Source: Bythopirellula sp. (lineage in GTDB: Bacteria; Planctomycetota; Planctomycetia; Pirellulales; Lacipirellulaceae). Taken from it: 64,000 bases of DNA. The position numbers and the translations under genes were made by a program. Position 1 is the first letter of the stretch. Each line of letters starts with the position of its first letter. Positions 30,801 through 64,000 of the stretch are shown in pieces. The notes below the pieces were generated by a model. The model was not told the origin of the DNA. It searched no databases and worked only from the letters and a program-made list of their open reading frames with translations. Where the stretch lies: NCBI GenBank assembly GCA_041738415.1, contig JBGSPU010000102.1, positions 474 to 64,473 on the forward strand, in the 5' to 3' direction.

Positions 30801-31589
30801 TCAGAGCCGCCTGTTGAATTTCAACCTCCATCGTTCATCGACCAATATAGCCACCTGCTCGATGAGAACGGCTTGGGGCAGGTTGAAGAGAGTCTCGCTC
30901 CGGTAACAGGTCCGGTGGGTCACTCGTCGGAGTCGATGTTTTCAAGCAACACCTTCTCTGGCGAAGGAGAAAGCGGAGATGACGGGGATTTGGAGGCCTA
31001 TATGTCAAATCTCATGCGACGAGTGCGAGGCGACACGTCTAGTGATTCGACACCTTCTCTAGCTACTAACTCCTCTGAGTCGAATGGCAGTCACACTTCT
31101 CAGAAATACGATACAGCCAAGCTTCCTGTACTAAACGAGAAGGGGACGCCTGCTGTTACCACATTCATTGAACCCCTCGGATTGCTTGAACTTGCTGATT
31201 TGAAAGCGAACTCCGGTAAACCCTCGCAAGCGATTGATTTGACGGCCATGCGTGAATTGGCGAACTCTTCCGCTCGCTCGGCTATTGCCAAACACCGCAA
31301 ACGTCGGCACTTCGAAGGGGCTTTGGGCAAGTTTCTGGTGACTTCGATTGCCGCAGGTACTGCAAGTTGCATGATTGCTTCTGCTGAGCACATTTCGCAT
31401 CCGCTCTTTCTCGGTGGCTGCGCTGTGGGCGTGGTGAGTATTTATTGGGGTTTTAAACTGTTGGGAGTCCTGCTTGAACTGATCCGGGACGGTGGAACTA
31501 CAAACGATCCGAGCTTCGCTGAATACTCGGATCAGGTCGACCTGCTCCCAATCGACGGAGCGGTAGAAACTTCTAGCCAAGGGTCGTAG
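27831..31589 (+). CDS. FHA-domain protein with very long coiled coil and C-terminal membrane anchor
   Basis: N-terminal CTIGSSPSCQIRL...HCLL...LND...GDELSIG (FHA-like); E/Q/L-rich heptads; two hydrophobic helices near the C-terminus. Confidence 0.85.
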   Translation: MTTLHTEETIASQSPPTNRMRLQLDIFAEDQWAHSLEVPVGKCTIGSSPSCQIRLSEKQVRPLHCLLLHGSEGVTATSWAPGMLLNDQEFSSAPLYVGDELSIGNLRLKLAVADPGDSSSEKDAEYTSNFQPDPAQIPDPSPDPHPPQSADESTEICDVHEIPATSADENLCLGETKLSQSNQQARQRCRRLLEGLRHQRDLAKNLRQEVVAHTDRREAVEQERDSLAAELEQLRTTSSAENRSLAEQLQILQGERDSHVAELEQLRTSSSAETRRLTEQLQTLQGERNWLASEVEQVRSNSVDETQQLNEQVQSLQQERDSLAGDLEQLRTNSAQQTHNLTEQLQNSHAERDSLFCELEQLHANSAERDSQQSAELDRVFGELTSAYEKTTQAEEALREAQARSEEFQHRIEELIAECERLANSSQTLHEQKEQLAQTIAERDCGITELEQELRVAQEVAQVAGEKLAEQMQSREKLFNELTALHAERIEAESEIERLKRESDELQRTSSDYLQQLHAAEESLRVVSDQLEQQTEELESLRKELPGLQAERHEFSVEKEKLIQETDAKRKRIELLEIDVKSLNREWQQSLAEVSRLKEAQLAAETRIEYLETEQANFDKDAFEALSTERNELANELRDLQEDIAARDELLQNAYERLEQLQAIVSQSEDDHAALAEDIAARIGQIELLTDELDALRENVARHGEERIQYTEQLTDREKTIEQLHVQFDALRTSITQVEQERNEIAQRLASQETQFAQITAELEAQRSKAERYEEERLQHVEGLSACEKQIESLTNELDNLRTGMMEVEQERDQLVERLAFQETHSAELSSELEAMRSNDSGVEQENEQYAQCIATQVDQIEHLTSQLEAALKSFSLVEQERDHVAQRLADREANIEQLTADLDQSRELLADCSEKAQQLNVVYHQTLAELEQARETILTSPAKEVKALTSEVEQESELTSEFTSEDFTDKDELATEALSASNDVDEDRPSEPPVEFQPPSFIDQYSHLLDENGLGQVEESLAPVTGPVGHSSESMFSSNTFSGEGESGDDGDLEAYMSNLMRRVRGDTSSDSTPSLATNSSESNGSHTSQKYDTAKLPVLNEKGTPAVTTFIEPLGLLELADLKANSGKPSQAIDLTAMRELANSSARSAIAKHRKRRHFEGALGKFLVTSIAAGTASCMIASAEHISHPLFLGGCAVGVVSIYWGFKLLGVLLELIRDGGTTNDPSFAEYSDQVDLLPIDGAVETSSQGS
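28497..28935 (+). repeat. Five 96-nt (32-aa) tandem coding repeats, last one partial
   Basis: ER(D/N) unit starts at 28497, 28593, 28689, 28785 and 28881, exactly 96 nt apart. Confidence 0.9.
29943..30570 (+). repeat. Three 210-nt (70-aa) degenerate coding repeats
   Basis: VEQER motif starts at 30042, 30252 and 30462, exactly 210 nt apart. Confidence 0.8.
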
Positions 31590-48685: not shown

Positions 48686-50140
48686 TCACCCCAGCAGCGG
48701 ACAGGTATCAAACCATTCCCGCCCCTGCGCCGTCATCCATTCTCGGCACTCCTCCGGCCCCCAGAAACCCGGGTCGTACATAAACAGGGTTGGCTTGTCC
48801 TTGGCTTCCCAAGCTTCCAAAATCGGATCGCACACCTTCCAGGCAGCTTCCACTTCATCGGCTCGAGCGAACAGACTGGCATCACCTTCGAGTGCATCGA
48901 GCAGCAGCCGCTCGTAAGCCTCAGGCATTGCGCCCCGGAATTCTTTCTGGTAGCTGAAATTCAAGTCAGTTTGGCGAGTGCGCATGCCCGCATCAGGCAC
49001 TTTGGTCTGAAAGTGAAGTTGGATTCCTTCGGCTGGTTGAACCTGAATCACGAGGCGATTTGCTTCGCCCAAATCTCTGGGAGTGTCGGCAAACAGATTT
49101 TGTGGTGGAGCATGGAACTGGATCACGATTTGTGTCGTGCGACACGACATCGCCTTGCCGCTCCGAAGATAAAACGGAACCCCTTGCCAACGCCAGTTAT
49201 CGATTCCCAGTTTCAGAGCAGCAAAGGTCGGAGTGCGACTCGTCGGTTTGACGCCTTCAGAGGCAGTGTAGCCTCGATACTGTCCACGAAATGTATCGCT
49301 GCGGACCTCGTCAGCGTCTAGCGGACGAATGGCGTGCAGCACCTTCACTTTTTCGTTGCGAATGGCGTCCGCTTCATACCGTACGGGGGCTTCCATCGCC
49401 ATTACCATCAACAATTGCAACAGATGGTTTTGGACCATGTCGCGCACTACGCCGGCCGAATCATAATATCCAGCGCGGCTCCCTACTTCGACCTCCTCGG
49501 CAACGGTGATTTGTACATGGTCGATATAGTTGCGATTCCAAATCGGCTCGAAAATCGTGTTGCCAAACCTGAGGACCAATAGATTCTGTACGGTTTCTTT
49601 GCCGAGATAGTGGTCAATGCGATAGACCTGATGCTCGGCAAACACTTCGTGGACAGCGGTATTCAGCTCACGGGCACTCTTTAAATCCCTGCCAAAAGGT
49701 TTCTCGATCACCACACTCCGCGGACCGTTAGCTTCGCAGGCCATGCCCGCTTGGCCCAGGTGTTCGATTGCCTGGTGATAGAATCGAGGAGCCGTGGAGA
49801 GATAATAGATCCGTGTGGTAGTTTCACTTCCTTCGAGTTCCTCCAGGAATTGTGACAGCTTTGTAAAATCCTCTGGCTGTCCTATATCCCCTGGTTGGTA
49901 GTAAATTGTCTCGGCAAACTGCGCCCATTTCTCTTGGTCGAAAGAATCTCCTGAGAATTTCTCGGTCGACGTGGCAAGTTCGGTGCGCCACTCAGCATGG
50001 GAGAACTTCGTTCGTGAGACACCGATGATATTCAGTGGTGAAGCGAGACGCCCCTTGCGAAACAACTGATACAAGGCCGGGATTAACTTGCGACAAGTCA
50101 AATCGCCCGAAGCACCAAAGATGACAATTGTCGCGGCCAT
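48686..50140 (-). CDS. zwf: Glucose-6-phosphate 1-dehydrogenase
   Basis: IFGASGDL, EKPFG, RIDHYLGKETVQN and WQGVPFYLRSGK motifs. Confidence 0.97.
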   Translation of the reverse strand: MAATIVIFGASGDLTCRKLIPALYQLFRKGRLASPLNIIGVSRTKFSHAEWRTELATSTEKFSGDSFDQEKWAQFAETIYYQPGDIGQPEDFTKLSQFLEELEGSETTTRIYYLSTAPRFYHQAIEHLGQAGMACEANGPRSVVIEKPFGRDLKSARELNTAVHEVFAEHQVYRIDHYLGKETVQNLLVLRFGNTIFEPIWNRNYIDHVQITVAEEVEVGSRAGYYDSAGVVRDMVQNHLLQLLMVMAMEAPVRYEADAIRNEKVKVLHAIRPLDADEVRSDTFRGQYRGYTASEGVKPTSRTPTFAALKLGIDNWRWQGVPFYLRSGKAMSCRTTQIVIQFHAPPQNLFADTPRDLGEANRLVIQVQPAEGIQLHFQTKVPDAGMRTRQTDLNFSYQKEFRGAMPEAYERLLLDALEGDASLFARADEVEAAWKVCDPILEAWEAKDKPTLFMYDPGFWGPEECREWMTAQGREWFDTCPLLG

Positions 50141-50328
50141 AAAACAGGACTCCTTGATCTCAAGAGGAATAATTTGCAATCCCGTCAGCAAGATAGTACT
50201 CTGGGTAGAGACTGTAAAGAGGATCACCCTTTCTAACTTGAATAGTGACGGGAGAACAAATTGAAGAATTCACTCAAGCAGCCGTCCGGATCGAAGTGTT
50301 GCCCACAATGGTAGAGACAAAGCGATTC

Positions 50329-51162
50329 ATGAATTGCCCGTTGTGTTATTCGGAATCGAAATGGGCATTTAAAGTGAAGGGCTATAATTTGCTTGATTGT
50401 GTAGAGTGTGGACATCGATTCGTAGAACTACAAGCGGATGAATCTCACGTTGCCACGGTCTACGACGATCCCTATTTCACAGGAGGTGGCGCAGGTTACT
50501 CGGATTACTTGATTGAAGCGAAGATGCTCAGACAACGTGGGGCGATGTACGCGAAAAAACTGCGGCGATACACCTCAATCCCAGGGAAATGTTTGGACGT
50601 TGGGGCAGCCGCAGGTTGTATCTTGCAGGGATTTGTTGATGCAGGTTGGCGAGGGGTCGGGCTAGAGCCAAACGAAAACATGGCCCAGTCGGGACGTGAA
50701 TTATTCGGCTTGGACATTCGGCAAGGATCTCTGGAGTGCTTTCAAACGGATGAGAAATTCGACTTGATTGTGATGATTCAAGTAGTCGCACACCTTTATG
50801 ACCCTCGTAGGGCGTTTGAAAAGGTTGCAGGACTACTGGAAGAAGGGGGGCAATTACTCATCGAAACTTGGAATCGCGACTCTTTGTACGCGAAACTTTT
50901 GGGAAAGTATTGGCACGAATACTCGCCGCCGAGCGTTTTGAATTTCTTTTCATTGCGTGGTTTAACTAAGTTCTTGGAGAATTTCGACTTGGAGAAAATC
51001 GCCCATGGGCGACCTGCCAAAAAGATTAGCGGTACCAACGCAAAATCGCTATTGCGTTATCGCATCGGAGATTGGTTCTTCCTGAATTTTATCCCCGGAC
51101 AGCTACACATTCCCTATCCCTCGGAAGATTTATTTTGGGCCTTGTACCAACGCAATAATTGA
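50329..51162 (+). CDS. Class I SAM-dependent methyltransferase with N-terminal CxxC..CxxC
   Basis: CPLC/CVEC, CLDVGAAAG, GLEPN and FDLIVMIQVVAH motifs. Confidence 0.85.
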   Translation: MNCPLCYSESKWAFKVKGYNLLDCVECGHRFVELQADESHVATVYDDPYFTGGGAGYSDYLIEAKMLRQRGAMYAKKLRRYTSIPGKCLDVGAAAGCILQGFVDAGWRGVGLEPNENMAQSGRELFGLDIRQGSLECFQTDEKFDLIVMIQVVAHLYDPRRAFEKVAGLLEEGGQLLIETWNRDSLYAKLLGKYWHEYSPPSVLNFFSLRGLTKFLENFDLEKIAHGRPAKKISGTNAKSLLRYRIGDWFFLNFIPGQLHIPYPSEDLFWALYQRNN

Positions 51163-51210
51163 AAAGGGCTTCGGGCCAAGTCACTCTGATGTATACTCGC
51201 AAGCACGAAG

Positions 51211-51993
51211 TCAAATCATCATCGCCGTAAACCCGCCATCGACATAGATCGCCGAACCAGTGATGAAACTGCCTGCCGTGGGCGAGAGCAACAAAAGTGC
51301 CGCGCCGATTAATTCCTCAGGCAAGCCAAAACGATTCATCGGAGTGTGTCGCATGATGCTCTCGATCCGCTCGGGACTGAGGATCTTGCGGTTCTGTTCA
51401 GCCGGGAAGAAGCCGGGGCAAAGGCAATTGATTCTCACATTTTGGGGCGCGAATTCCCGTGCTGTGTTTTGGGTGAGATTAAGAATGGCGGCCTTGGTGG
51501 CGGCGTAGATGTAGACACGCGACAAGGGAAGAAAACAGGTAACGCTGCCGATGTTGAGAATGGATCCCCCCCCTTGCTTGACCATTTGAGGAATAAACGT
51601 CTGGCAAGCTAGATGCGTCCCCACAAAGTTCGCGTCAAAAATGCCGTGCAGTTCTTCGTCGGTGATTTCCAGATAAGGAGTTGCAGAATTGACCCCCGTG
51701 CCGTTCACTAACGAATCGACACGGCCATGCTCGCTAACCACAATATCAAGCAGTTTTTGCAGAGACTCGCGTGAGGTGGCATCCACAGCAGTGAACGTTG
51801 CCTTGCCACCGAGTTTCTCAATCGCCTTGACGCGATCTTTGCCACGTTCTTCGCTACGGCCTGCCACGACGACGTGGGCCCCCGCTTGAGCTAATCCATC
51901 GCACAGAGCGCCCCCCAGCACTCCCGTGCCGCCGATCACGACGCAGACTTGCCCGTCGAAGCCAAACTGTTTCTGCAAGTACTCGGAGGTCAT
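51211..51993 (-). CDS. SDR-family oxidoreductase (sugar-acid dehydrogenase-like)
   Basis: IGGTGVLG, NIGS, YAATK catalytic motif, GFFPAEQN and VDGGF. Confidence 0.9.
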   Translation of the reverse strand: MTSEYLQKQFGFDGQVCVVIGGTGVLGGALCDGLAQAGAHVVVAGRSEERGKDRVKAIEKLGGKATFTAVDATSRESLQKLLDIVVSEHGRVDSLVNGTGVNSATPYLEITDEELHGIFDANFVGTHLACQTFIPQMVKQGGGSILNIGSVTCFLPLSRVYIYAATKAAILNLTQNTAREFAPQNVRINCLCPGFFPAEQNRKILSPERIESIMRHTPMNRFGLPEELIGAALLLLSPTAGSFITGSAIYVDGGFTAMMI

Positions 51994-52080
51994 TCAACGC
52001 TCATGATTGGAGGTGGCAAGTGGATTAGGAGGCGAGCCGGATAAGTTAGCTTCCGGAATTGTTCCTATGGGGATTCATCA

Positions 52081-53520
52081 TTATTTTTTCGGTGTCTTCC
52101 TCAATTGAATCCACTCGGCGTGGAAGGTACCCGGTTTGTCGAGTCGTTCAAAGGTGTGCGCACCAAAATAATCTCGCTGGGCCTGGAGCAGATTTGCCGG
52201 CAAGCGTTCGCGGCGGTATCCGTCGTAGTAGGCCAAAGCTGCCGAGAAAGCTGGGGTGGGAATTCCAAACTGGGCGGCAGAAGCCACCACATGCCGCCAG
52301 CCATTTTGGGATCGGTTGACTGCTTCTTGGAAGTAGGGGGCCAGAAGTAGATTCTCCAACTTCGGATCAGCGTCAAAAGCTTCTTTGATACGATCAAGAA
52401 ACACGGCACGAATGATGCAACCACCTCGCCACAACATTGCGCATTCGCCAAAATTTAACGGCCAGTTGTGCTCCTCCGCCGCAGCCTGCAATTGCACAAA
52501 CCCTTGGGCGTAGCTGCAAATCTTTGAGGCGTAGAGGGCATCGCGAATTGGCTCGATGAACTTGGCCTTATCGCCAGGGTACTTCGGTTCTGGACCCGTG
52601 AGTACTTTGCTCGCTCTTACTCGCGATTCCTTCAATGCCGAAAGGGAGCGGGCGTAGACGGCTTCAGTCACGAGGGTGCTCGGCACGCCAAGATCCAGAG
52701 CCAATTGGCTCATCCATTTGCCGGTCCCTTTGGCACCCGCGCGGTCCATGATCTTGTCTACCAAATAGCCACCGCCATCATCTTTCACGCTAAAGATATC
52801 TCGCGTAATCTCAATCAGATAGCTGTTAAGTTCACCTTGGTTCCAATTTTCAAATACGTCGTACAATTCGTCATTGGTGAGACCCAAGGCCTCGGTCAGA
52901 AGGAAGTAGGCTTCACAAATCATCTGCATGTCGCCGTACTCGATACCATTGTGAACCATCTTTACGTAATGGCCGGCACCACGAGGACCAACCCATTCGC
53001 AGCAGGGAATATCATTGTTGGGGCCAACTTTTGCCGAAATAGCCTGGAAAATCGGTTTCAAATGCGGCCAAGCGGCTTCGCTACCACCCGGCATCATGCT
53101 GGGACCCAAGAGTGCCCCTTCTTCACCCCCAGAGACTCCGGTACCACAATAGAGCAATCCTATGCTTTCGACCCGCTTCGTACGGCGTTCTGTGTCGGCG
53201 TAAAAAGTGTTGCCGCCATCGATAAGAATATCCCCCGGCGAGAGCAGTGGGATGAGGCTCTCGATCAGATCGTCGACCGCGGGCCCCGCCTTGACCATCA
53301 TCATCACTTTACGGGGAGCCTTGAGCGATTTGACCAATTCTTCCAGGCTGTGACAGCCAACAAATTGCTTGTCCTTGGCCCGGCCTGTCATGAGATCGTC
53401 AACCTTTGAGGTAGTCCGGTTGAAAACGGCCACGCGATATCCCCGGCTTTCGACGTTGAGCGCCAGATTCTCACCCATCACGGCGAGACCAATAAGTCCG
53501 AAATCACATAGTTCTGCCAT
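52081..53520 (-). CDS. gnd: 6-phosphogluconate dehydrogenase, decarboxylating
   Basis: GLAVMG, VSGGEEGA, VKMVHNGIEYGDMQ, KGTGKW and QAQRDYFGAHTF motifs. Confidence 0.98.
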   Translation of the reverse strand: MAELCDFGLIGLAVMGENLALNVESRGYRVAVFNRTTSKVDDLMTGRAKDKQFVGCHSLEELVKSLKAPRKVMMMVKAGPAVDDLIESLIPLLSPGDILIDGGNTFYADTERRTKRVESIGLLYCGTGVSGGEEGALLGPSMMPGGSEAAWPHLKPIFQAISAKVGPNNDIPCCEWVGPRGAGHYVKMVHNGIEYGDMQMICEAYFLLTEALGLTNDELYDVFENWNQGELNSYLIEITRDIFSVKDDGGGYLVDKIMDRAGAKGTGKWMSQLALDLGVPSTLVTEAVYARSLSALKESRVRASKVLTGPEPKYPGDKAKFIEPIRDALYASKICSYAQGFVQLQAAAEEHNWPLNFGECAMLWRGGCIIRAVFLDRIKEAFDADPKLENLLLAPYFQEAVNRSQNGWRHVVASAAQFGIPTPAFSAALAYYDGYRRERLPANLLQAQRDYFGAHTFERLDKPGTFHAEWIQLRKTPKK

Positions 53521-53580
53521 AGTATTGCTAGGTCCAAACTTGAATATTATTTTGTTGTTTGTTTATGGAATCACGTTTCG

Positions 53581-54450
53581 TTATTTCGCATCCACCGGCC
53601 AAGGCGGTGTAGCGGGGAGGTACTCATTAAACTTATCAACGAGTTGCTGTTGATAGTCGCCGGCAAAAGTACCTGAAAAAAAGCGGTCGATGCCTTCGTC
53701 CAAAAGTCGCTTCCAACTAGCCTCTTCCTGCCCGGGGTTGATGGGAAAGAATAGGCAATTGTTAGCCACGGCTGCCTGATGGTCGCCCGGGGCGTCGCCG
53801 ATCATCAGTGCCTTACCAGGATCGTATTTCCCTGCGACGGAGAGTGTTTCTTTTTTTGTGCCAGATTCCTGACCACAGATCGCTCGCACATAGTCGGCAA
53901 CACCATGCTCCTGCCACTCGGCTTCCAAAGCTGCATTGGGAGTGGCAGAAACAACAAGCATGTCCGACCTCTCCCCCAGGTGTTCCAGGCATTTCTTCAC
54001 ATTGGGAAATGGTGGCACACCCCGCACCATGTCGGCCACCGCCTCATTCACCGCCCGTGACCATTCCAGCGCCTTCATCAGATCGGGGTCCCCCGTGGCT
54101 TCAGTGGCCTTCTCCAACGCGGGGTTTCCCAGCTTAGATTCCTGTTCGATCCAGTTGATCAAACCCGCCGGACGAGGGATCTTCACGCCGCGGGCCTTCA
54201 CCTCGGGGCGCCGCCGTAGCCAATCGAGTTGCTCCACCAAAGCCGGGAAACGATTCACCCCCCGACTTTTAGAGTACAGATTCACAAACTCGGCTGCCTC
54301 ACGGGCATACTTGCTCACGCCTTGCAGGTCGTAGTAGTTGATGAATGCCGGGATGAAGCATTCCTTATGCTTCAATTCCATTGTGTCGAATACGCAACCA
54401 TCGGAATCTATGCCGACGAGGAACTCATGCTTCGGTGTAAAGTCTTTCAT
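53581..54450 (-). CDS. HAD-superfamily phosphatase
   Basis: Motif I DSDGCVFD, motif II VVSAT, motif IV MIGDAPGD. Confidence 0.88.
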   Translation of the reverse strand: MKDFTPKHEFLVGIDSDGCVFDTMELKHKECFIPAFINYYDLQGVSKYAREAAEFVNLYSKSRGVNRFPALVEQLDWLRRRPEVKARGVKIPRPAGLINWIEQESKLGNPALEKATEATGDPDLMKALEWSRAVNEAVADMVRGVPPFPNVKKCLEHLGERSDMLVVSATPNAALEAEWQEHGVADYVRAICGQESGTKKETLSVAGKYDPGKALMIGDAPGDHQAAVANNCLFFPINPGQEEASWKRLLDEGIDRFFSGTFAGDYQQQLVDKFNEYLPATPPWPVDAK

Positions 54451-54492
54451 ACTTGCCTTCGTATCCTGTTCTATCGAGGACGTGCGTCGATG

Positions 54493-55803
54493 TTACGCTG
54501 GAGCCTTACTGCGGTCTGCTTGAGGGACATACCTGCCAAGTTTCTGCTCGGCGTACAACGGCTTCAGCCGTGCCAACCGTTGCCGACCGTTTTCCATCGG
54601 GAGACTTACCATCGAATCCCCCACCAGCGGCTTACAGTACGAGACAAACTCATCGGAGACATCGAGTCCACTGGCCGAAATCCACTTGGCGGGAAAGGTC
54701 CGCTCGCTGTTCGCAACGTCGGGCAAGGGAACCTTATCGTAGGTCACACTATAGGGGGAACCGGGTTTACGCAGAATCGTGGACATGAAGCCACTCTCCC
54801 CCGCAGCGGCTAGTTGCAAGGCCTTCACGCCGACTTCATAGGCTTCGTCCAAATCGACCAAAGAAGCGTAACCGATGGAATTCCGCTGGTCGGTGCCCGA
54901 CACATTGCAGCGGGCAGCACCCTTGGTTGCCAGGCCCTTCGAGTTGAGATAGTTGACGATGAGTTGTGCCACGGTGAGTTGGCTGGCACCGAAAGACGTG
55001 TGGCCAAAGGAATCCTTAACCTCGCCCAAGTCCCCCAAGTCGAGTCCTTCGCTCACAACCAGTATCACTCGCCCATCACGTTTGAGTTGGTCATTTACAT
55101 TGTCGGCAACCTGCTCAAGGGAAATCTTTCGCTCTGCGAGATAAATTTGCAATGGCATCTCGCGATTTGGATCAGCGAGTCGTGCAGCGGCTGGGATAAA
55201 CCCGATCTTACGGCCCATCGCCTGCAACACCAACACAGGATCAGCCGGCGAAGAGCCCGCGTTCTCTTCATTGGCATTCTGTACCATGTGCATCCAATAT
55301 TTGGCACACGAGCCATAACCGGGCGTGTGATCGATGAGTTTGAATTCGCTGTCGCCGACGTCATTGTCGATGGTTTTGGGAACACCGATACCGACCAGAT
55401 CCAGTCCGCGCTCTTGGCCGAGCGCCGCAACCTTGTTGGCCGTGTCCATTGAATCGTTGCCACCGATGTAGAGGAAGTAGCCAATGTCATGGGCCTTGAA
55501 AATGTCGATGACTCGGTCAAAATCTTCATTCTGCCAACTCTTTAATTTATAGCGGCAGGTACCGATCGAACCTGCGGCAGGGGTAAACCGAAGCAGGGCG
55601 ATTTCTTCCGGCGACTGGGCCGAGAGATCGATGAGTTTTTCTTTCAGAACTCCTTCGATTCCGTGATGCCCCCCATAGATTGAACCGATCACGGACGAAT
55701 CTCGGGCCGCTTCAACGATGCCTCTCAGAGTGCTATTAATCACACAACTCGGTCCACCACTTTGGGCGACGAGCATATTTCTTGAACGACCCATATTTTT
55801 CAA
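54493..55803 (-). CDS. Second phosphofructokinase-family protein, PPi-type residues
   Basis: QSGGPSCVIN, GGNDSMDT, PKTIDND, TPGYGS and MGRKIG motifs. Confidence 0.88.
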   Translation of the reverse strand: MKNMGRSRNMLVAQSGGPSCVINSTLRGIVEAARDSSVIGSIYGGHHGIEGVLKEKLIDLSAQSPEEIALLRFTPAAGSIGTCRYKLKSWQNEDFDRVIDIFKAHDIGYFLYIGGNDSMDTANKVAALGQERGLDLVGIGVPKTIDNDVGDSEFKLIDHTPGYGSCAKYWMHMVQNANEENAGSSPADPVLVLQAMGRKIGFIPAAARLADPNREMPLQIYLAERKISLEQVADNVNDQLKRDGRVILVVSEGLDLGDLGEVKDSFGHTSFGASQLTVAQLIVNYLNSKGLATKGAARCNVSGTDQRNSIGYASLVDLDEAYEVGVKALQLAAAGESGFMSTILRKPGSPYSVTYDKVPLPDVANSERTFPAKWISASGLDVSDEFVSYCKPLVGDSMVSLPMENGRQRLARLKPLYAEQKLGRYVPQADRSKAPA

Positions 55804-55978: not shown

Positions 55979-57796
55979 CTACTGATAAATCGGCAGAGCT
56001 AAGACGCGTTGTTCGATTCTTTGCAATTCGGTATTAAAGAGGGCGCCATTATCTTTAGCATATTCTGTGCGGAGTTTGTCCCCCGGCAAGTCTTCGGCTA
56101 AATCGTCGATTTCTGGAAAATAGCGATTGACCGTAAATCCCACGGTAACTTGCTCGACATCGATTTTCCCCGCCAGAATCTGCTCAGCGAAGATTATTCC
56201 CGCCCGATTGGCCGCCATGTCAACGAAACTGAAGCCGGTGCCGCCGTTAGCGTCGAGTACTTCTTTTGCCAACCCGACGCCACGCGCGTTTGCGCCTCCC
56301 AGAGCAACTGCCAGATGTGCTGAGACAAAAAAGTGCTTTGCCAAGTCGGCGCGTCTCCGCATGGTTGGATTGCCGAGCATAAGTCGGCGATCTTCTCTTT
56401 GCTGGTCTGTTTCTACCTGCGAAACCAATCCACTGGTAAGAGGAAAAGAGCTTAGAGTACCCTCGGTATCCATAAAGATTCCCAAGGCAAGAACCATTGC
56501 CTCGGTCGCTTCGTGGGATTTGAACTCACTTGCCACTGCCGCGGCTTCACGGACATAGCGGGCCGTGAGATCGTCGCCAGTCAAATTGTCCACCACCTGA
56601 TCCGCCCCCCCAGCAGCGTTCTTCTCTGCTCGCGCTTTTTCTAGCTTCGCCATCTGAGTGAGGAAGCGCAGCACTTCTTTTACCTCTTGAATCAATCGAG
56701 GAGAATTGGCCGATGCCACTAACTGCTTATACTGTGCCGCGGCAGGGTCGTTGGGGAGTGCCTCGGCCAGCACTTCATAGATTTCGATCATCCTCTGTTT
56801 GGTGGGCAGCGAGATATCGGCAAAGCTTGTGACATCCCCCTGGCGCAACTCATCGGTCAGCAGCGACATCAATAAAGCGTTCACCGGATCAAACTGAATT
56901 CTTCCTCCGAAGGATGCAGGCTGTCGCACGTCGAACACAGGTCGCATGACACTATTGGGCTCGGGACTGTGGGTCGCCCCTAAAAAATGCCCCAGTTCGT
57001 GTACCAAGAGTTCGAGCCGATGAGACTCTCGCACATTGCGGGCTCGCTCTTTGAGCAGTATGTAGGGATACAAGGTACCACGACTGCCTCCCATATGGGT
57101 TCGTCCCATGCTGACCTCATATTGGCTGCTGAATCCGATCACTAGCCGGGCCGGTTTCGTGGAGACCTCGCGTTCGAATTCCCGCATCGACTGATAGAAA
57201 TCATGAATCGCATTGTTCGAGTTCCAAGTCTCGACGGCAACCACCTCCAGTTGTACGCCACAATTCTGCACCAGGATTTGCGATGCCGCCGCAATTCGTT
57301 CCCTTAGTCGGGGTTCCCAAATAGAACGATGCGTAGGTTCATCTTCGTCAACCGCCAATTTGACAGGAATCTTTACCAAACCATGTTTCTCAACGGCAAT
57401 CGACTCTCTTGAGGCCCGATTCGAGGGCTCAAGATCGCTCTTTCCTAAGCCAATTTTCTCAAGTGACAGAGAGTTTCGACTTAGTTCGCGTTTGAAAAAA
57501 TAGGCGCTGTCAGGATGAAGTTCAAAGGTCTGAAATGTCAAATCTTGGCCAAATCGCACATTGAGGCTGCGACTGAAGAACACTGGGCGTGAGTCGCCGG
57601 GGGAGATCGTCAGAGATCGCTTGGGTTCCCCGAGAGGGTGAAATTCAATGGTAACACCCGCCTGAGTTCGATTCGAGAGCACCGCCACCTCTGCGCGGAT
57701 CGGCAGGCTTGCCTGACAAAGAAAGAGAAGGCTAAGGCTTATGACCAGCCGACGCCGGATTGTAGGAATACAAGGAGTGGGCACGGAGATCACCAA
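55979..57796 (-). CDS. Exported zinc metalloprotease-like protein with C-terminal helical domain
   Basis: Signal peptide; HELGHFLGATH (HExxHxxGxxH) followed by SVM Met-turn; C-terminal DLAKHFFVSA...GFSFVDMAANRAG. Confidence 0.75.
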   Translation of the reverse strand: MVISVPTPCIPTIRRRLVISLSLLFLCQASLPIRAEVAVLSNRTQAGVTIEFHPLGEPKRSLTISPGDSRPVFFSRSLNVRFGQDLTFQTFELHPDSAYFFKRELSRNSLSLEKIGLGKSDLEPSNRASRESIAVEKHGLVKIPVKLAVDEDEPTHRSIWEPRLRERIAAASQILVQNCGVQLEVVAVETWNSNNAIHDFYQSMREFEREVSTKPARLVIGFSSQYEVSMGRTHMGGSRGTLYPYILLKERARNVRESHRLELLVHELGHFLGATHSPEPNSVMRPVFDVRQPASFGGRIQFDPVNALLMSLLTDELRQGDVTSFADISLPTKQRMIEIYEVLAEALPNDPAAAQYKQLVASANSPRLIQEVKEVLRFLTQMAKLEKARAEKNAAGGADQVVDNLTGDDLTARYVREAAAVASEFKSHEATEAMVLALGIFMDTEGTLSSFPLTSGLVSQVETDQQREDRRLMLGNPTMRRRADLAKHFFVSAHLAVALGGANARGVGLAKEVLDANGGTGFSFVDMAANRAGIIFAEQILAGKIDVEQVTVGFTVNRYFPEIDDLAEDLPGDKLRTEYAKDNGALFNTELQRIEQRVLALPIYQ

Positions 57797-57867: not shown

Positions 57868-58212
57868 TTATTTATCCAGAAGTTCGAGTAGTTCTTGCAT
57901 CGCCAGCATGTTTCGCTCTTGCCCGGTGGCGGTGAAAATTGACAGCAGATTCACAAGCATTCTTGCCAGCCATTGCTGGTGCGTCGCCCGAGCAAGCCAT
58001 TCCGAGGAGACGACGATAGGCCGACCAGCAGTCTGCTCGATTCGTTCTTTGGCCTCCTGGACAGTTAACACGCACCCGCCATAGAAAGGATCCACATACA
58101 TCGACTTATGAGACTCACCCACTGCGGAATCCACCTCTGCCATAAAATGGCCCGGCGAATTGATTCCATGAACAACCAGACCCACCAGTTCGGCAACACG
58201 TTTGTAGATGAG
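57868..58212 (-). pseudogene. 3' fragment of a SirB1/transglutaminase-like gene
   Basis: LIYKRVAELVGLVVHGINSPGHF...YVDPFYGG...QWLARMLVNL; the N-terminal half of the family is missing. Confidence 0.7.
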
Positions 58213-58310
58213 AGGCGCCAGCGCCATGGGCGTGTCCGGGATGACCGGACTTGGCTTCCTGAACCGCATCCATCGACAGATTGCGAATGGGTTTGATAGG
58301 CACGACGCAA
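58213..58310 (-). pseudogene. 5' fragment of transketolase (about 32 codons, one frameshift)
   Basis: IKPIRNLSMDAVQEAKSGHPG, then after a one-base shift TPMALAP; matches the transketolase N-terminal IRTLSMDAVQ.A.SGHPG.PMALAP motif. Confidence 0.75.
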
Positions 58311-58359
58311 GATTCCCATGCGAAGTCGTACGCCTCGAACCGTGCTTTTGAGTACGCGG

Positions 58360-58547
58360 TCGGATGGCGGCGACAGATGCCCGCAATGCACGTTGGCCAG
58401 TTTTGAAAGGCCGGCCGCTAACCGGAAGTGCCGCGAGACCGTCTCGCGGTGGACGCCCGACCGCCGTGCATTCGTCCGCTGCGACCAGCCTTGAGCAGAC
58501 AACGTTAGAATCACGTCGATCACTGGCATCTTGAGCTGATTCGCCAT
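58360..58547 (-). pseudogene. 5' remnant of an IS21-family IstA transposase (HTH only)
   Basis: GGAGG RBS, then MANQLKMPVIDVILTLSAQGWSQRTNARRSGVHRETVSRH...SKLA; no DDE domain and no istB. Confidence 0.7.
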
Positions 58548-58860
58548 CCCGAACCTCCCTCCACAGCACCGCCGCTGAAGGTCCAGTAGGACAAATCTTG
58601 ACGGCCAACAAAAAGCCGGTTTAGCTGGCAATGACCAACTTATTGAAGTGGATAATTCAAGCTCAGGCCGAGGAATAGGAAACACCACGCTGCGAACATG
58701 TTACATCAGGTTACCGACACGGTCGTCCGCGTGCGAAATAGCTGGGATTTGTTGCCAGGCGTCAAGGGACTTTGTAAACTAAAAGGCAGCCTGATCGCTG
58801 CAACATCTTGTTGCTGCCGACGAAAAGATCTTTTCACTCGCGAGCAATTCGGTGCATCTA

Positions 58861-59445
58861 ATGAACACTCTCTCAAAACCTGCTCAGTTATCGACGAAGG
58901 CTGCGGTCTTCGTTCTCGTCATTTCGCTGGTCGCGATTGTCCGCGCGGACGACAACACTTCTGTGCTCGATGACGCATCGCTCAAATTGATGCTGGAGAA
59001 CATGGGCCTTGAGATCGGCAAAGAATTCAAGACCGATGCAGGAGTCCCCATTTACGAAATCGTGGAAACAAACGAGAAGGGGACGTGGACCGTCATGCTT
59101 TCCCTTACCGGAGACAAAAGCTACCTGTTTGTGAGCATGTACTTGAGCAAGGTCCCCGAGGACCGAGAGATTCCGCACGAGATCGCGTTGCGGATGCTTG
59201 AGGCGAACGATAATTGGAACCATCCACGAATTGTATTCCGCAAGTGGGACCGGACCTTGCGATTGATCGAGTCGCTTTATAATCGGGATATCAAGCCGAT
59301 TCTATTACGTAAAGTCATGGTTCAAATGATCGACATGGCCAGTCAGACGTGGGATCTGTGGGATCTTACGCGCTGGCCAGTGAAGCCTGGCGAATCGCCT
59401 TCAGCGATTGAGGTTCAAGCCGCAGAAGAAACGACGAAAGAGTGA
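58861..59445 (+). CDS. Exported protein with CesT/YbjN (type III chaperone-like) fold
   Basis: Signal peptide ending VRA|DD; LKLMLENMGLE...MLSLTGDKSYL...RMLEAND...LRLIESLYNRDIKPILLR pattern recalls the YbjN/CesT alpha/beta fold. Confidence 0.6.
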   Translation: MNTLSKPAQLSTKAAVFVLVISLVAIVRADDNTSVLDDASLKLMLENMGLEIGKEFKTDAGVPIYEIVETNEKGTWTVMLSLTGDKSYLFVSMYLSKVPEDREIPHEIALRMLEANDNWNHPRIVFRKWDRTLRLIESLYNRDIKPILLRKVMVQMIDMASQTWDLWDLTRWPVKPGESPSAIEVQAAEETTKE

Positions 59446-59539
59446 GGGCGCGCGGGCTGCGTCCTATGCTTTCTGCAATCGCCTTGTGAGCAAAGTCAAT
59501 TTGGTCGCCGACAATAAACCGAAGAGCGGGAGGGTTTGC

Positions 59540-62500
59540 ATGCGCCTGCTACATCGTCCAACGATTTGTCTGATCGTGTTGGGTCTCGCTTCGCCTTTGT
59601 ACGGACAGGGATCGTCTTTCCCAAACCAGCCACAGACAACGCAACCTTCGGCACCAACTAACTTGGATCGCCAAATCCACATTTCCGATGGCCATGGTCA
59701 ACAGCGTGTGCTCTGGGAACGTCGCACTGGCGCGCAAACCTATATTGCGATTTTCCGGGAAGTGGTAGGCACGATCTTTACGCGCCAAGGGGGCGTCGAT
59801 TCGCTGGTATGGGATCGGCAGGATGGTGGAAAATTCTACGGAAACGTCGAAGTTCAGGCGAACGGGCACGTGGTCAAAGTCACCGATATCGAATGGAATC
59901 AAGAAAAGCTATATCGCGATGATGGTTCTTGGGAGTGGACACTGTCGTCACGGGATACGCTGGATCTTACCGCGGACGCTGACCCAGAGCCACGACCAGT
60001 ATTCACACTCTTCGCTTCCCGGAATGAGGTCAGAATTCTCGATCATTCCGACAACCGGATTTACTGGACAGACGCGACCATTGAATCGAATCGGGTGACC
60101 AGAGACCTGGAAAACAGCGACTATACATTTGTCAATAGCGAGGGCCTGACGGTAACCATTCATCCAGACGGCAGCCGAAGCCTAAAGTCGGCACGGGGCC
60201 AGTCGGAAATCGACGCTGGTGGCCGCATAAAGAATCAATTCAACGCCGAAGGGAAACTTACCCACAGATATCACTACGGTCGAACATCCGATGGCAAAGT
60301 CCAACTCGACCAGTATGAAAACAATACTGGACTCTGGAACCTTAGGAATCCCGATCGCCAGCATAATGAAAAAATGAAGTGGGAGCTTCAGAATCCCTTG
60401 CGTGGTCCGAAGGTCACCCTGGAATCGGATCGTTATTTTGTGAATCGGCAGAATGAACTTGTGGCGCAGTCTCAGCCCTCCTTTATCCAAGTCAGTACGA
60501 CGGATGGAACGGTCGTCACGAGTAAGGTCAAGGATCTGGCGGAATCCAAGCACGGACTCACCCGCGAAACGACCATCGAAGCCAAACAATTCGTCAATGG
60601 CCGGCTGCTCGACTACCTCGCGATGACCGAGATAACCGATGCCAAGGGAAAATCTCAGAGCAAAACCTTGAAGAGTCCGGCGGGCCTATTCCGCAGTCAA
60701 GATGGACGGACTTGGGAACGAGTCGATCAAGATGGAATACGTATTGAGGGCTCTCAACCATGGCTTGGCGACATCACAATCGCGACAGCACCGGGTACTC
60801 TCAAGTTTTCCGACGGCAGGGTACACCACTATAGCTCGGGTGCGTTGATCCGTCACCACGGCTCCGCCCACGAGGATCTGGAATCTAGCGTCGACGCCAT
60901 CGACGAACGGAAAGGACAGCCACGCGTAACCGTTCTGGCGACCAGCGGAATCCATTTCACGAAGTTTCCAGACGGGGCTGAGGTGGTCCGTGGCCGCCGG
61001 GGAGAGACTCTTTCGGCGCGCTATTCGGATGGAACTGTCTATATCTTCGATACGGAGATCACCGCATCGGGAAAACGGCTACTGGCGGGGCTCGCAAAAT
61101 TAAGAAACGATCACGACCTCGTTAACGAATGGAAATGGAAATCCGTTCGCAACGACGCTGGGGCGGAGATTGGCGGCTATTTTCAAGATCGGGATGGAAA
61201 TCTTTCGTTCACCAAACTCGAGTTGAGTGGCTCAGGCCAGCTGGTTGAGCGAACTGAAGGCGAACTTGGAAATCTCACGACAATCACTCACCACCGGGAT
61301 GGCACAACGACCATCAAGCGGGACGACACGGTCAATCGCGACGGTCTGGAAGTTGTGCTGGATCCCATGGGCCGAATCGTTCAGATATTGGACAGTTTCG
61401 GCTGGGTACGCCACGACCTGACCGCTACTGGCGAAAGAGTTATTTCGACCGGCGCAGCACGCATCCAATACGACGATCAGGGCAGGATCGCTCTTTTTGA
61501 TAGCCCTGCTGCCGTGGTGGTTACCGATAAATATCAGCCGACCGCCGAACGCCCATTGCCGTCGGATCGCGAGATTATTCATGCGAGTGGAATTGAGTTC
61601 GAAGGCATCGGCGACTATTGCTTGACTTATACACGCAAGAACGATGGTCATACCGTGACCACATTTCCCGATGGCAGGCTGCGCGAATACGCCATCTTCA
61701 GCGGAGAGTCGCGCCTCGTGAGATCCCAGGAATGGAGCGGCGATCAGATCGCCATCACGCGCGACGATGACGGGCAAGTGCAATCGGCAACCCGGACGAA
61801 AGCCGATGGCGCGACCACCACGGTTCTTTGCACGTCGGAGACGGAAGCCGACGCTCGACCCGATCCACTTGAATCGCCGACGGATATTCGCGTCGCCAAG
61901 GGGGAGATTCTGGCGTTGGAGCGAGACAAGCGGGTTTGGATTCAATTTCAGAATCCTGACGGCCTGCGTGTCGAACTCCTGACCGACGGTGCCGAGTTCC
62001 ATTGGCAACAAGTTGGTGAACAGTGGCACTTGGTCTTTGCCAAGGATCGCAAAGGAAAGGAGTCGCGGTTTGCCTACAGCGCCGATGGCAAACTTCAATC
62101 GGCCACGGGCTCCGACTTTGAACTCGCCAGAGATTCAGCGTCGGGGCTGATCCAGGGCCGCGTTGGTGATTCCAGCGGTGACACGGGTGACAGCGAGCAA
62201 TTTCTGGATTTCCATATTGGGCGCTCGGCGGGAACGTATTGGCTGACTATCGACAAACGATTGGGCCGCGACCAAAAAACGGCGCAAACGATCTTCGACC
62301 TATACCGCGGCAGTCGTATTAACGTTGATATGGATGGGGTAAGCGAGGAGTTCGACCATTTGGCCAGACCGATTTACGAATCTTACGCTGATGGCACCGA
62401 AATCAAGCACGTTTATCTGGACGACGGGGGACACCGAAAAGTTGGTTCTGATGGGAGCATCTGTGATTACCAGTTGGGACCCGATGGCAAGGAACGAGTA

Positions 62501-64000
62501 TTCTACAGAAAGACATCGAGCGGAGACGAATATCGAACCGTCTACAACGACACAACTGGCAGTCGTACAGAAATCGCACCTGGCGGGGTCATTAAGGACT
62601 ACATCATCGACAAGGCTGGGCATGAGCGGATTGTCTATGAAAAGGACGCCGAAGGAAATGAAACTAAACGCACCTTCGATCTCGACGAAGGTCGTTCTGT
62701 TGAACACCTCCCAGATGGAGCCACGACCGGCTTTGATAAAGACGGAAGAGTTCTTTACCACATCGACAAGGCCGGCAACACGTTCAATCACTTCTACAAC
62801 GATGATGGCGCGAAGTGGGTCGAAGGCACGGAGGAGGAAAAAATGGGGGCGAAGCACAACTCGAAGGTTGTGTTCGATACCGCGGGCCGACTGACCCACA
62901 AGCAAGAAGTGGACGGTCAAAAGATGGACTTCTTCTACTTCCGAGATGCCGAAGATGGAAACCTACAGGCAGAGGATTATATTCCCATTGCGTTTGAAGA
63001 TTTAGAACATAAATGGCAACGCGGTGAAAGCATGGCCGATGGTTTTGGCAACATCCAATGGGCGAAAAGGTCGGTCAAGGATCCCAAGGCAAAAGCGGAG
63101 GAGTGGATCGGTGTCGTTGAGTTTACGCCTTGGACGAATCCAAACGACGTCCGTTCGACCATCGACGCCGGCTACAAGCTCATCACACGTGAGGCGCCAG
63201 CGAACCCGCCGGAAGTGGAAGTGCCATCGCTCGTGATCGACCGTGACGACGCCGGTAGAATCACGCGGACGATCAGTGCCGATCGCGTGACGACGACCGA
63301 GTACGAGTGGGATGGAGACGAACTGAAAGGCGTGACGCGGACCATCCAGAATCCTGACAAGCCGTCGCGAACGATCGTGTTTCAACAGGCGGCGGACGGA
63401 ACTTGGACCGCTGGACAGGACGCCTACGACAAGCTGTGGGTGGATTCTCAGCAGGGAACTATCTATCTCAAAAGAGCAACGACGTGTCGACAGTTAATGG
63501 CTGATGGAACTGAGATCGAGACTATCTCGACGATCACGCGAGGCGAGTTTTGGAAACAGAATGCACGATTGTCTCAAGTTGTACGAAATACGCGTGGTCA
63601 AGTTCATTCGGTGAGGGACTCTCAAGGAAACACCACGGTGTTCGGGGCCAACTCCAAAGGCGAAATCATCTCCGCCATACAGGGCTCGTCGGGATTGATC
63701 AAACGCCCGGATGGCGCCTGGACCGATCCACTACAGCCCGGCAAGTTGATCCAGGCTGATTGCACGGTCGATCACTCCGGACGACAAGTCTGGAAAGGAC
63801 AGAATTCGAATCCTATCGTGCGCGAAGTAGCACCAGACGGCACCGTGACCGTAACGCGATTGGACGGGGAGAAAACTGTCTACAGTGCGGATGGGGTGAC
63901 AATCACCCACGTTCCGCGATCCAGCAGTGCGGTCAAACAGATCGTCACCAACGATTTGGATGAAATTCGCGTCGAGCTGCGCAATGGCAGCATTTACCAA
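59540..64000 (+). CDS. Giant secreted YD/RHS-like beta-repeat protein (at least 1487 aa, runs off the window)
   Basis: GGGAGG RBS, ATG at 59540; hand translation has no stop to base 64000 (4461 nt, in frame); signal peptide MRLLHRPTICLIVLGLASPLYG|Q; repeats YDDQGR, YSADGKL, FDKDGR, FDTAGRL, RDDAGRI, RNTRGQVHSVRDSQGNTT. Confidence 0.88.
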   Translation, partial: MRLLHRPTICLIVLGLASPLYGQGSSFPNQPQTTQPSAPTNLDRQIHISDGHGQQRVLWERRTGAQTYIAIFREVVGTIFTRQGGVDSLVWDRQDGGKFYGNVEVQANGHVVKVTDIEWNQEKLYRDDGSWEWTLSSRDTLDLTADADPEPRPVFTLFASRNEVRILDHSDNRIYWTDATIESNRVTRDLENSDYTFVNSEGLTVTIHPDGSRSLKSARGQSEIDAGGRIKNQFNAEGKLTHRYHYGRTSDGKVQLDQYENNTGLWNLRNPDRQHNEKMKWELQNPLRGPKVTLESDRYFVNRQNELVAQSQPSFIQVSTTDGTVVTSKVKDLAESKHGLTRETTIEAKQFVNGRLLDYLAMTEITDAKGKSQSKTLKSPAGLFRSQDGRTWERVDQDGIRIEGSQPWLGDITIATAPGTLKFSDGRVHHYSSGALIRHHGSAHEDLESSVDAIDERKGQPRVTVLATSGIHFTKFPDGAEVVRGRRGETLSARYSDGTVYIFDTEITASGKRLLAGLAKLRNDHDLVNEWKWKSVRNDAGAEIGGYFQDRDGNLSFTKLELSGSGQLVERTEGELGNLTTITHHRDGTTTIKRDDTVNRDGLEVVLDPMGRIVQILDSFGWVRHDLTATGERVISTGAARIQYDDQGRIALFDSPAAVVVTDKYQPTAERPLPSDREIIHASGIEFEGIGDYCLTYTRKNDGHTVTTFPDGRLREYAIFSGESRLVRSQEWSGDQIAITRDDDGQVQSATRTKADGATTTVLCTSETEADARPDPLESPTDIRVAKGEILALERDKRVWIQFQNPDGLRVELLTDGAEFHWQQVGEQWHLVFAKDRKGKESRFAYSADGKLQSATGSDFELARDSASGLIQGRVGDSSGDTGDSEQFLDFHIGRSAGTYWLTIDKRLGRDQKTAQTIFDLYRGSRINVDMDGVSEEFDHLARPIYESYADGTEIKHVYLDDGGHRKVGSDGSICDYQLGPDGKERVFYRKTSSGDEYRTVYNDTTGSRTEIAPGGVIKDYIIDKAGHERIVYEKDAEGNETKRTFDLDEGRSVEHLPDGATTGFDKDGRVLYHIDKAGNTFNHFYNDDGAKWVEGTEEEKMGAKHNSKVVFDTAGRLTHKQEVDGQKMDFFYFRDAEDGNLQAEDYIPIAFEDLEHKWQRGESMADGFGNIQWAKRSVKDPKAKAEEWIGVVEFTPWTNPNDVRSTIDAGYKLITREAPANPPEVEVPSLVIDRDDAGRITRTISADRVTTTEYEWDGDELKGVTRTIQNPDKPSRTIVFQQAADGTWTAGQDAYDKLWVDSQQGTIYLKRATTCRQLMADGTEIETISTITRGEFWKQNARLSQVVRNTRGQVHSVRDSQGNTTVFGANSKGEIISAIQGSSGLIKRPDGAWTDPLQPGKLIQADCTVDHSGRQVWKGQNSNPIVREVAPDGTVTVTRLDGEKTVYSADGVTITHVPRSSSAVKQIVTNDLDEIRVELRNGSIYQ

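Follow-up and report, generated by a model that had tools for sequence, protein, structure and literature searches.

A predicted exported protein with the YbjN/CesT chaperone fold is encoded beside a large exported beta-rich protein in Bythopirellula sp.

We analyzed a stretch of 64,000 nucleotides from Bythopirellula sp. (contig JBGSPU010000102.1, positions 474 to 64,473), here called the window. Near its downstream end two genes follow each other on the forward strand, a small gene for a 194-residue protein and a large gene that runs off the window (Table 1). A preliminary description of this DNA had proposed that the two form an export or folding system, in which an exported chaperone-fold protein serves a giant YD-repeat or Rhs-type protein on an acquired island.

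The open reading frame (ORF) of the small gene extends over 58852/58861-59445, and both the ORF listing and direct reading give 194 codons from the ATG at 58861. This ATG is also the start common to both relatives in the alignment. The encoded protein consists of a signal peptide (residues 1-29), a chaperone-fold domain (residues ~35-175) and an acidic, disordered C-terminal tail. The leader (MNTLSKPAQLSTK-AAVFVLVISLVAIV-RA↓DD) was assigned by direct reading of the sequence, as was that of the large protein. Its n-region is positively charged, its h-region comprises 14 residues, and V-R-A occupies positions -3 to -1, in agreement with the V-x-A cleavage motif. An AlphaFold2 model of the protein contains a helix at residues 11-25, followed by a low-confidence linker. 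Because of these sequence features and the family-wide conservation of the leader (see below), the small protein is predicted to be exported by the Sec system. The mature protein has a mass of about 19 kDa and an isoelectric point (pI) of 4.8. The preliminary description had given the length of the protein, its VRA↓DD leader and the 94 bp to the next same-strand ORF, and all three were confirmed. No paralog of the small gene was found in the 64-kb window or in any fetched flank.

Direct searches of Pfam, NCBIfam and PDB sequences gave no match for the small protein, and a search of PDB sequences with the family profile gave nothing significant. AlphaFold2, run with an alignment of 66 family members (alignment A1), returned a model with a mean predicted local distance difference test score (pLDDT) of 87, and of about 97 over residues 40-170. 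Helices at 38-47, 106-118 and 146-162 and strands at 52-57, 63-71, 74-82, 88-97, 123-127 and 132-140 give the topology alpha-beta4-alpha-beta2-alpha. This is the order that defines the CL0097/YbjN-like fold, alpha-beta-beta-beta(-beta)-alpha-beta-beta-alpha over about 130-150 residues. In a Foldseek comparison with the PDB, the best 46 matches were all class-I chaperones of type III secretion systems (T3SS) or YbjN-family proteins (probability 1.0, target-normalised template modelling score 0.51-0.69). They included ExsC, CesT, DR_1245, SchA, SicP, STM2138, VecA, YbjN, SpcU, SycE and AmyR, the best structural matches being ExsC (3KXY, E = 1.5e-4) and CesT (5Z38 and 5WEZ).

Pfam profiles did match homologs of the small protein. 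A scan of each of the 66 aligned members yielded CesT (PF05932) in eight (best E = 5e-5), YbjN (PF10722) in five (best E = 6e-8), TY-Chap1 (PF22551) in two and PepSY_2 in 12, with most of these matches below threshold. Because they come from homologs alone, the profile link of the window protein to PF10722 and PF05932 is transitive only. On the strength of the model, the mature domain can be confidently assigned to the class-I T3SS-chaperone/YbjN fold. The earlier recognition of a CesT/YbjN-like pattern was correct according to the model, the Foldseek comparison and the Pfam matches of family members.

The family was found when 1.84 billion cluster representatives (50% identity) were searched exhaustively with HMMER at E <= 1e-3. 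Exhaustive searching was needed, as word-indexed searches with the small protein and with the family profile retrieved orthologs only. The family comprises at least 146 clusters at 50% identity and was previously unannotated and un-named; one member carries the NCBI label "YbjN domain-containing protein [Pirellulales bacterium]". Most members have 170-210 residues and align to query residues ~35-175. In alignment A1, the N-terminal hydrophobic leader and the linker vary, whereas the domain behind them is conserved, its motifs being LKxMLENMGYEP, NRDITP..LR and T..LW.P.KW. In 130 of 147 family sequences the domain is preceded by a hydrophobic 10-mer (Kyte-Doolittle >= 2.0) close to the N-terminus, equivalent to the leader of the window protein, and lipobox-like motifs occur in 13. 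Most of the 17 leaderless members begin within or beside the domain and resemble truncated gene calls. Judging from these leaders, export appears to be a trait of nearly all members. The closest non-orthologous relative (P0149/P0003; P0149 lies at L016:8001-8978) is a protein of 325 residues with two tandem copies of the domain, which is consistent with a dimeric working unit; this relative may be a pseudo-dimer in a single chain.

A 2026 review of T3SS chaperones and clan CL0097 describes YbjN as the most widespread yet understudied sub-family, and the terms "signal peptide" and "periplasm" are both absent from it (PMC13466201). The TY-chaperone paper of Aravind and colleagues places TY-Chap1-3 in cytoplasmic ADP-ribose conflict systems only (PMC9503650). 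An exported branch of the YbjN/CesT superfamily is thus undescribed in the literature searched. The preliminary description had regarded an extracytoplasmic chaperone-fold partner of an exported YD protein as an undescribed arrangement; export and fold are now supported, and the clan review is silent on both periplasm and signal peptides.

The large ORF starts with an ATG at 59540, with GGGAGG 6-7 nucleotides upstream. Its product looks Sec-exported from its N-terminus (MRLLHRPTICLIVLGLASPLYG↓QG, and ...STPLFA↓QG in the ortholog). The ortholog has a full length of 1,567 residues, so that "giant", as the protein had been called, was an overstatement for a protein of only about 1,565 residues. 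NCBIfam gave a single match to TIGR01643 (YD_repeat_2x), with 19.3 bits versus a cut-off of 15.8, and the hairpin motif D-x-x-G-[RKNQ]-phi occurs nine times versus 0.76 expected in shuffles. With a repeat hidden Markov model, no more than about 12 units were recognized, spaced irregularly by 35-130 residues. The JGI name of the ortholog is "YD repeat-containing protein". Neither the window protein nor the ortholog matches the Pfam families RHS_repeat (PF05593) or RHS core (PF03527), and no PDB sequence match was obtained, including Rhs, Tc and teneurin shells. At the C-terminus of the ortholog the same beta-rich sequence continues, and no toxin domain and no anchor were recognized. An RHS core with an autoproteolysis motif and a variable C-terminal toxin was also looked for with Pfam and not found in the full-length ortholog. 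The low-confidence AlphaFold2 model of the large protein indicates only an almost all-beta hairpin composition. As read from its sequence, the large protein is exported and rich in beta structure, its YD-like hairpins are degenerate, and it is not a Rhs toxin. The YD character claimed earlier is weak, with one TIGR01643 match and nine motifs, and a Rhs identity is not supported, for want of an Rhs core and a toxin domain.

Scans for related loci with a single protein led to one contig of a metagenome-assembled genome (MAG) when genomes were searched, and to seven loci in metagenomes. The ortholog pair is present in six independently assembled metagenome contigs (L001-L006), with about 76-80% amino acid identity for the small and 62% for the large protein. 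Order and strand are kept, and the same-strand gap is short in both cases (94 bp in the window and 42 bp in the ortholog). Nucleotide homology between the window and L001 begins at 58742, some 120 bp ahead of the start codon of the small gene, without any match farther upstream. The upstream genes differ, with enoyl-CoA hydratase and sigma-70 genes in the ortholog, and PFK, metzincin-like protease and broken transglutaminase-like genes in the window. The ratio of nonsynonymous to synonymous substitution rates versus the ortholog is 0.24 for the small and 0.30 for the large gene, which points to purifying selection on both. A related lineage has thus kept the pair, with about 120 bp upstream, as one unit. 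A promoter candidate for the two-gene unit falls within this homologous stretch; by itself it is weak, since the consensus scan found one such site versus 0.8 expected. Neither the sequence of the spacer nor its hairpin is conserved in L001. The hairpin has a poor T tract, the region contains four such sites versus 1.3 expected, and the folding energy of the spacer is unremarkable (z = +0.63). In hot-spring metagenomes of the source community, single contigs span the 3' part of the small gene, the spacer and the large gene.

Table 1. Features at the two-gene locus, in window coordinates. The arrow marks the predicted cleavage site.
Feature	Position	Strand	Basis
Degenerate stretch: truncated transglutaminase-like gene overlapped by an ORF with sub-threshold HTH matches	57868..58688	-	Pfam
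Sigma-70-like promoter candidate for the two-gene unit, TTGCCA-17-TAAACT	58752..58780	+	Consensus scan
Gene for the 194-aa putatively exported YbjN/CesT-fold protein	58861..59445	+	ORF, homologs, model, dN/dS
Signal-peptide coding part, MNTLSKPAQLSTKAAVFVLVISLVAIVRA↓DD	58861..58947	+	Read from sequence; AlphaFold2 helix; family leader conservation
94-bp spacer with weak terminator-like hairpin (59445-59465) and GGGAGG ribosome-binding site	59446..59539	+	Sequence, terminator scan
Gene (5' 1486 codons) for a putatively exported all-beta protein of ~1,565 aa with sparse YD-like hairpins; runs off the window	59540..64000	+	

Neighbourhoods were read at 13 distinct distant family loci. Immediate neighbours with tetratricopeptide repeats (TPR) were present at five of them, four clear (L016, L011, L017, L012) and one faint (P0025). 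In three of the five cases the TPR gene follows the family gene directly on the same strand. Among these, the N-termini of the two large proteins were read, and both have signal peptides. These two are an exported 1,515-residue TPR protein 38 bp downstream of P0149 (L016:8001-13563), unrelated to the large window protein by sequence comparison, and an exported 696-residue TPR protein 25 bp downstream of its family gene at L011 (L011:9935-12655). At the P0025 locus, a 632-residue protein with weak M48-peptidase and faint TPR matches follows on the same strand within 100 bp. L017 has a TPR protein upstream (L017:3-1051) and an unknown 317-residue protein downstream on the same strand, again within 100 bp, and the TPR protein of L012 is convergent (L012:211-1639). 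Convergent neighbours also occur at L019/L020, L021 and L022. At L013 an open frame of 190 codons without Pfam match follows on the same strand after about 110 bp, and the next same-strand ORF at L009, a xylose-isomerase-like TIM barrel, overlaps the family gene. Gaps exceed 450 bp at L018 and L023, and the contigs of L007 and L024 end just past the family gene. Other neighbours vary between a sulfatase, a PQQ beta-propeller and none.

Two further observations were made at these loci. A DDE_5 transposase fragment is present just upstream of P0149 at L016. The P0025 locus has genes for an extracytoplasmic function (ECF) sigma factor and a Ser/Thr kinase divergently upstream, and for a TPR and CHAT protein of at least 1,537 residues downstream.

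Upstream of the small gene, the preliminary description had seen a scar of broken genes, consistent with an acquired island. The ORF at 57868-58611 (minus strand, 247 codons) matches Transglut_core2 over no more than the C-terminal half of the domain (profile positions 72-154 of 155), its N-terminal stretch being unrelated. The overlapping ORF at 58065-58688 (minus strand, 207 codons) has only sub-threshold HTH_23, HTH_29 and HTH_38 matches, of the transposase N-terminus type. The stretch has the appearance of a gene that an insertion disrupted long ago, and the scar is partly real. The island has no compositional support: the GC contents of the two genes (0.515 and 0.543) and their GC contents at third codon positions lie within the window range (0.528 +/- 0.010), without anomaly. 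The region is rearranged yet not compositionally foreign. Homology to the flanks of relatives is lost upstream of 58742 for L001 and upstream of about 58799-58813 for the flank of the L008 type.

In the source hot-spring metagenomes (DNA runs X1-X4), the small gene is joined at about 58813 to either of two upstream flanks. The first is that of the window itself; the second shows full identity with the Pirellulales MAG contig L008 and has miaB and glnE upstream. Within the small gene, assembly contigs break at 59018-59047 and the alleles at 59059-59226 form a mosaic of the two types. The join of upstream and downstream parts of the window runs through a strain-variable node. In L008 (94% nucleotide identity), homology to the window stops after codon 169 of the small gene. 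In place of the rest stands the C-terminal end of an IS5-family transposase gene on the opposite strand (L008:10508-10644, minus strand; identified by tblastn versus annotated IS5 transposases, best E = 3e-4), where the contig ends.

Farther upstream in the window, 55979-57796 (minus strand) encodes a 605-residue protein with a hydrophobic leader, a metzincin-type HExxH region (Peptidase_M10 and Reprolysin matches, E = 3e-6 to 1e-4) and a long C-terminal extension without Pfam match. Directly upstream, a sugar-phosphate housekeeping cluster occupies 48686-55803, with genes for G6PD, a methyltransferase, an SDR protein, 6-phosphogluconate dehydrogenase, an HAD hydrolase and a PFK-family kinase. 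A 1,216-residue subtilase (Peptidase_S8; 689-4339, minus strand) has a long C-terminal region without Pfam match. The sole match of a 1,252-residue protein (27831-31589, plus strand) is Yop-YscD_cpl near the N-terminus, the cytoplasmic domain of an inner-membrane T3SS component; the protein that carries it is unrelated and 27 kb away.

Among known systems, the YbjN family (PF10722; E. coli YbjN 6VU7, Erwinia AmyR 5FR7 and Deinococcus DR_1245 4H5B) resembles the new family in fold and size, in profile matches of five members and the NCBI label of one, and in having no T3SS link. It differs in that about 90% of the new family bear a Sec-type leader and have motifs of their own. To our knowledge, the characterised YbjN-family proteins are cytoplasmic. 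Class-I T3SS chaperones (CesT, ExsC, SicP, SycE, SchA; CL0097) provide the best structural matches. They are also similar in that the window protein is small and acidic, in that its gene adjoins that of a much larger exported protein, and in that the tandem-fused relative fits their dimer. However, T3SS chaperones are cytoplasmic and act on effectors without Sec signals, whereas both proteins of the window pair have Sec leaders. No T3SS genes are among the annotated genes of the window, which are housekeeping or unrelated. Assignment as a functional class-I T3SS chaperone was considered and rejected on the basis of the Sec leaders of the protein and its family and of these annotated genes. The small protein is not a T3SS component, nor is its partner a Rhs toxin. 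The TY-chaperone superfamily (TY-Chap1-3; PMC9503650) unifies the T3SS/YbjN peptide-binding fold, and the two PF22551 matches point in its direction, but TY-Chap1-3 are known from cytoplasmic ADP-ribose conflict systems, and no such genes are present at the window locus.

The established behaviour of the fold, which is dimeric and binds extended client segments (CesT-Tir, SicP-SptP, ExsC-ExsE), suggests a role. By analogy, the small protein would probably work as a dimeric holdase or adaptor that binds peptides in the periplasm or extracellularly. Its grip on an extended stretch of a large exported repeat protein would either maintain that protein in a soluble, assembly-competent state or dock it. 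Since both proteins carry Sec leaders, any interaction would be extracytoplasmic. The client in the window lineage would be the adjacent beta-rich protein; elsewhere, the large TPR proteins with export signals that often adjoin family members may take its place. We regard this reading as a possibility somewhat short of probable. A broader proposal would be that signal-peptide-bearing YbjN/CesT-fold proteins are an unrecognized, extracytoplasmic and ATP-independent class of chaperones or adaptors for very large exported repeat proteins (beta-hairpin/YD-like here, TPR elsewhere). They would act while their clients cross the periplasm or assemble at the surface, in Planctomycetota and some other T3SS-less bacteria. 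In this full form we consider the proposal rather unlikely.

Several observations weigh against the holdase or adaptor reading, and some of them favour a competing view. None of the 13 distant loci has a YD-like or Rhs neighbour, and about half have no close same-strand neighbour. A dedicated YD partnership is therefore unsupported and a dedicated two-gene system is not a family trait; homologs mostly without a YD/RHS neighbour had been named in advance as the finding that would refute the proposed system. The TPR association is a raw count and only suggestive. The core pI of the family ranges from 4.5 to 10, whereas T3SS chaperones are uniformly acidic. For the large protein, a word-indexed search found no homologs beyond the ortholog, and the AlphaFold2 model of residues 24-1223 from a two-sequence alignment reached a pLDDT of only 31. 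A run search found no RNA runs holding window sequence, and the spacer contains the weak terminator-like hairpin. The adjacency may be incidental or lineage-specific, the pair having persisted only through shallow divergence, and the small protein may be a general periplasmic YbjN-like protein with a stress, regulatory or ligand-binding role that has no specific connection to its large neighbour. Heterogeneous neighbours without any YD-like protein, an unconserved spacer with its hairpin and the example of cytoplasmic YbjN, which has no established client and pleiotropic effects (PMC13466201), all fit this explanation. It is harder to reconcile with the survival of the pair in at least two lineages while its upstream flank was rearranged and genes farther upstream were not retained, with the short same-strand gaps of 94 and 42 bp, or with the recurrence of TPR proteins beside family members (5/13), which suggests non-random neighbours. 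We rate this explanation level with the holdase or adaptor reading.

Two other explanations carry far less weight. The N-terminal half of the domain might be PepSY-like, and the small protein an exported protease-regulating or inhibitor module. The sub-threshold PepSY_2 matches (best E = 2e-5) do fall in the N-terminal helix and strands (LKxMLENMGYEP...), P0025 has a faint precomputed PepSY_2 match and is followed by the protein with weak M48-peptidase and faint TPR matches, and an exported metzincin-like protease is encoded about 1 kb upstream in the window, on the opposite strand. Yet the whole 140-residue domain superposes on T3SS chaperones and YbjN, including the alpha2-beta-beta-alpha3 part that is missing from PepSY, and the 50 best PDB matches listed by Foldseek include none to a PepSY structure. 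The window protein itself has no PepSY match, and the upstream protease is separated by broken genes and not syntenic in relatives. PepSY proper would be a helix and a four-stranded sheet only, and none of the 66 members scanned matched PF03413 or PF13670 above threshold. We regard this explanation as improbable. A polymorphic-toxin (Rhs) system, with the large protein as toxin carrier and the small one as Eag- or DUF4123-like chaperone or immunity protein, is suggested by the small accessory gene beside a protein with enriched YD-like motifs, by the YD_repeat_2x match just above the NCBIfam cut-off and by the JGI name. Eag (DUF1795) and DUF4123 proteins are cytoplasmic, and the accessory fold here is different. 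Against such a system stand the Sec leaders on both proteins, the lack of RHS_repeat and RHS core matches and of a recognisable C-terminal toxin domain, and the lack of PDB sequence matches to Rhs, Tc or teneurin shells. The YD-like motifs are sparse, vary in their spacing and do not form a tight array, there are no PAAR, VgrG or type VI secretion system genes nearby, and the small gene lies upstream, whereas immunity genes normally follow the toxin. This explanation appears extremely improbable.

The literature searched describes the T3SS-chaperone/YbjN fold as a peptide-binding module of the cytoplasm. A family of at least 146 clusters that appears to send this fold outside the cytoplasm would widen the view of where the fold acts. 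The 19-kDa protein and its 1,565-residue neighbour may provide a tractable two-gene model for the handling of very large exported repeat proteins by planctomycetes. If the pairing should be incidental, the locus would still have revealed a new exported YbjN-like family, and the neighbour would still be corrected to a non-Rhs protein.

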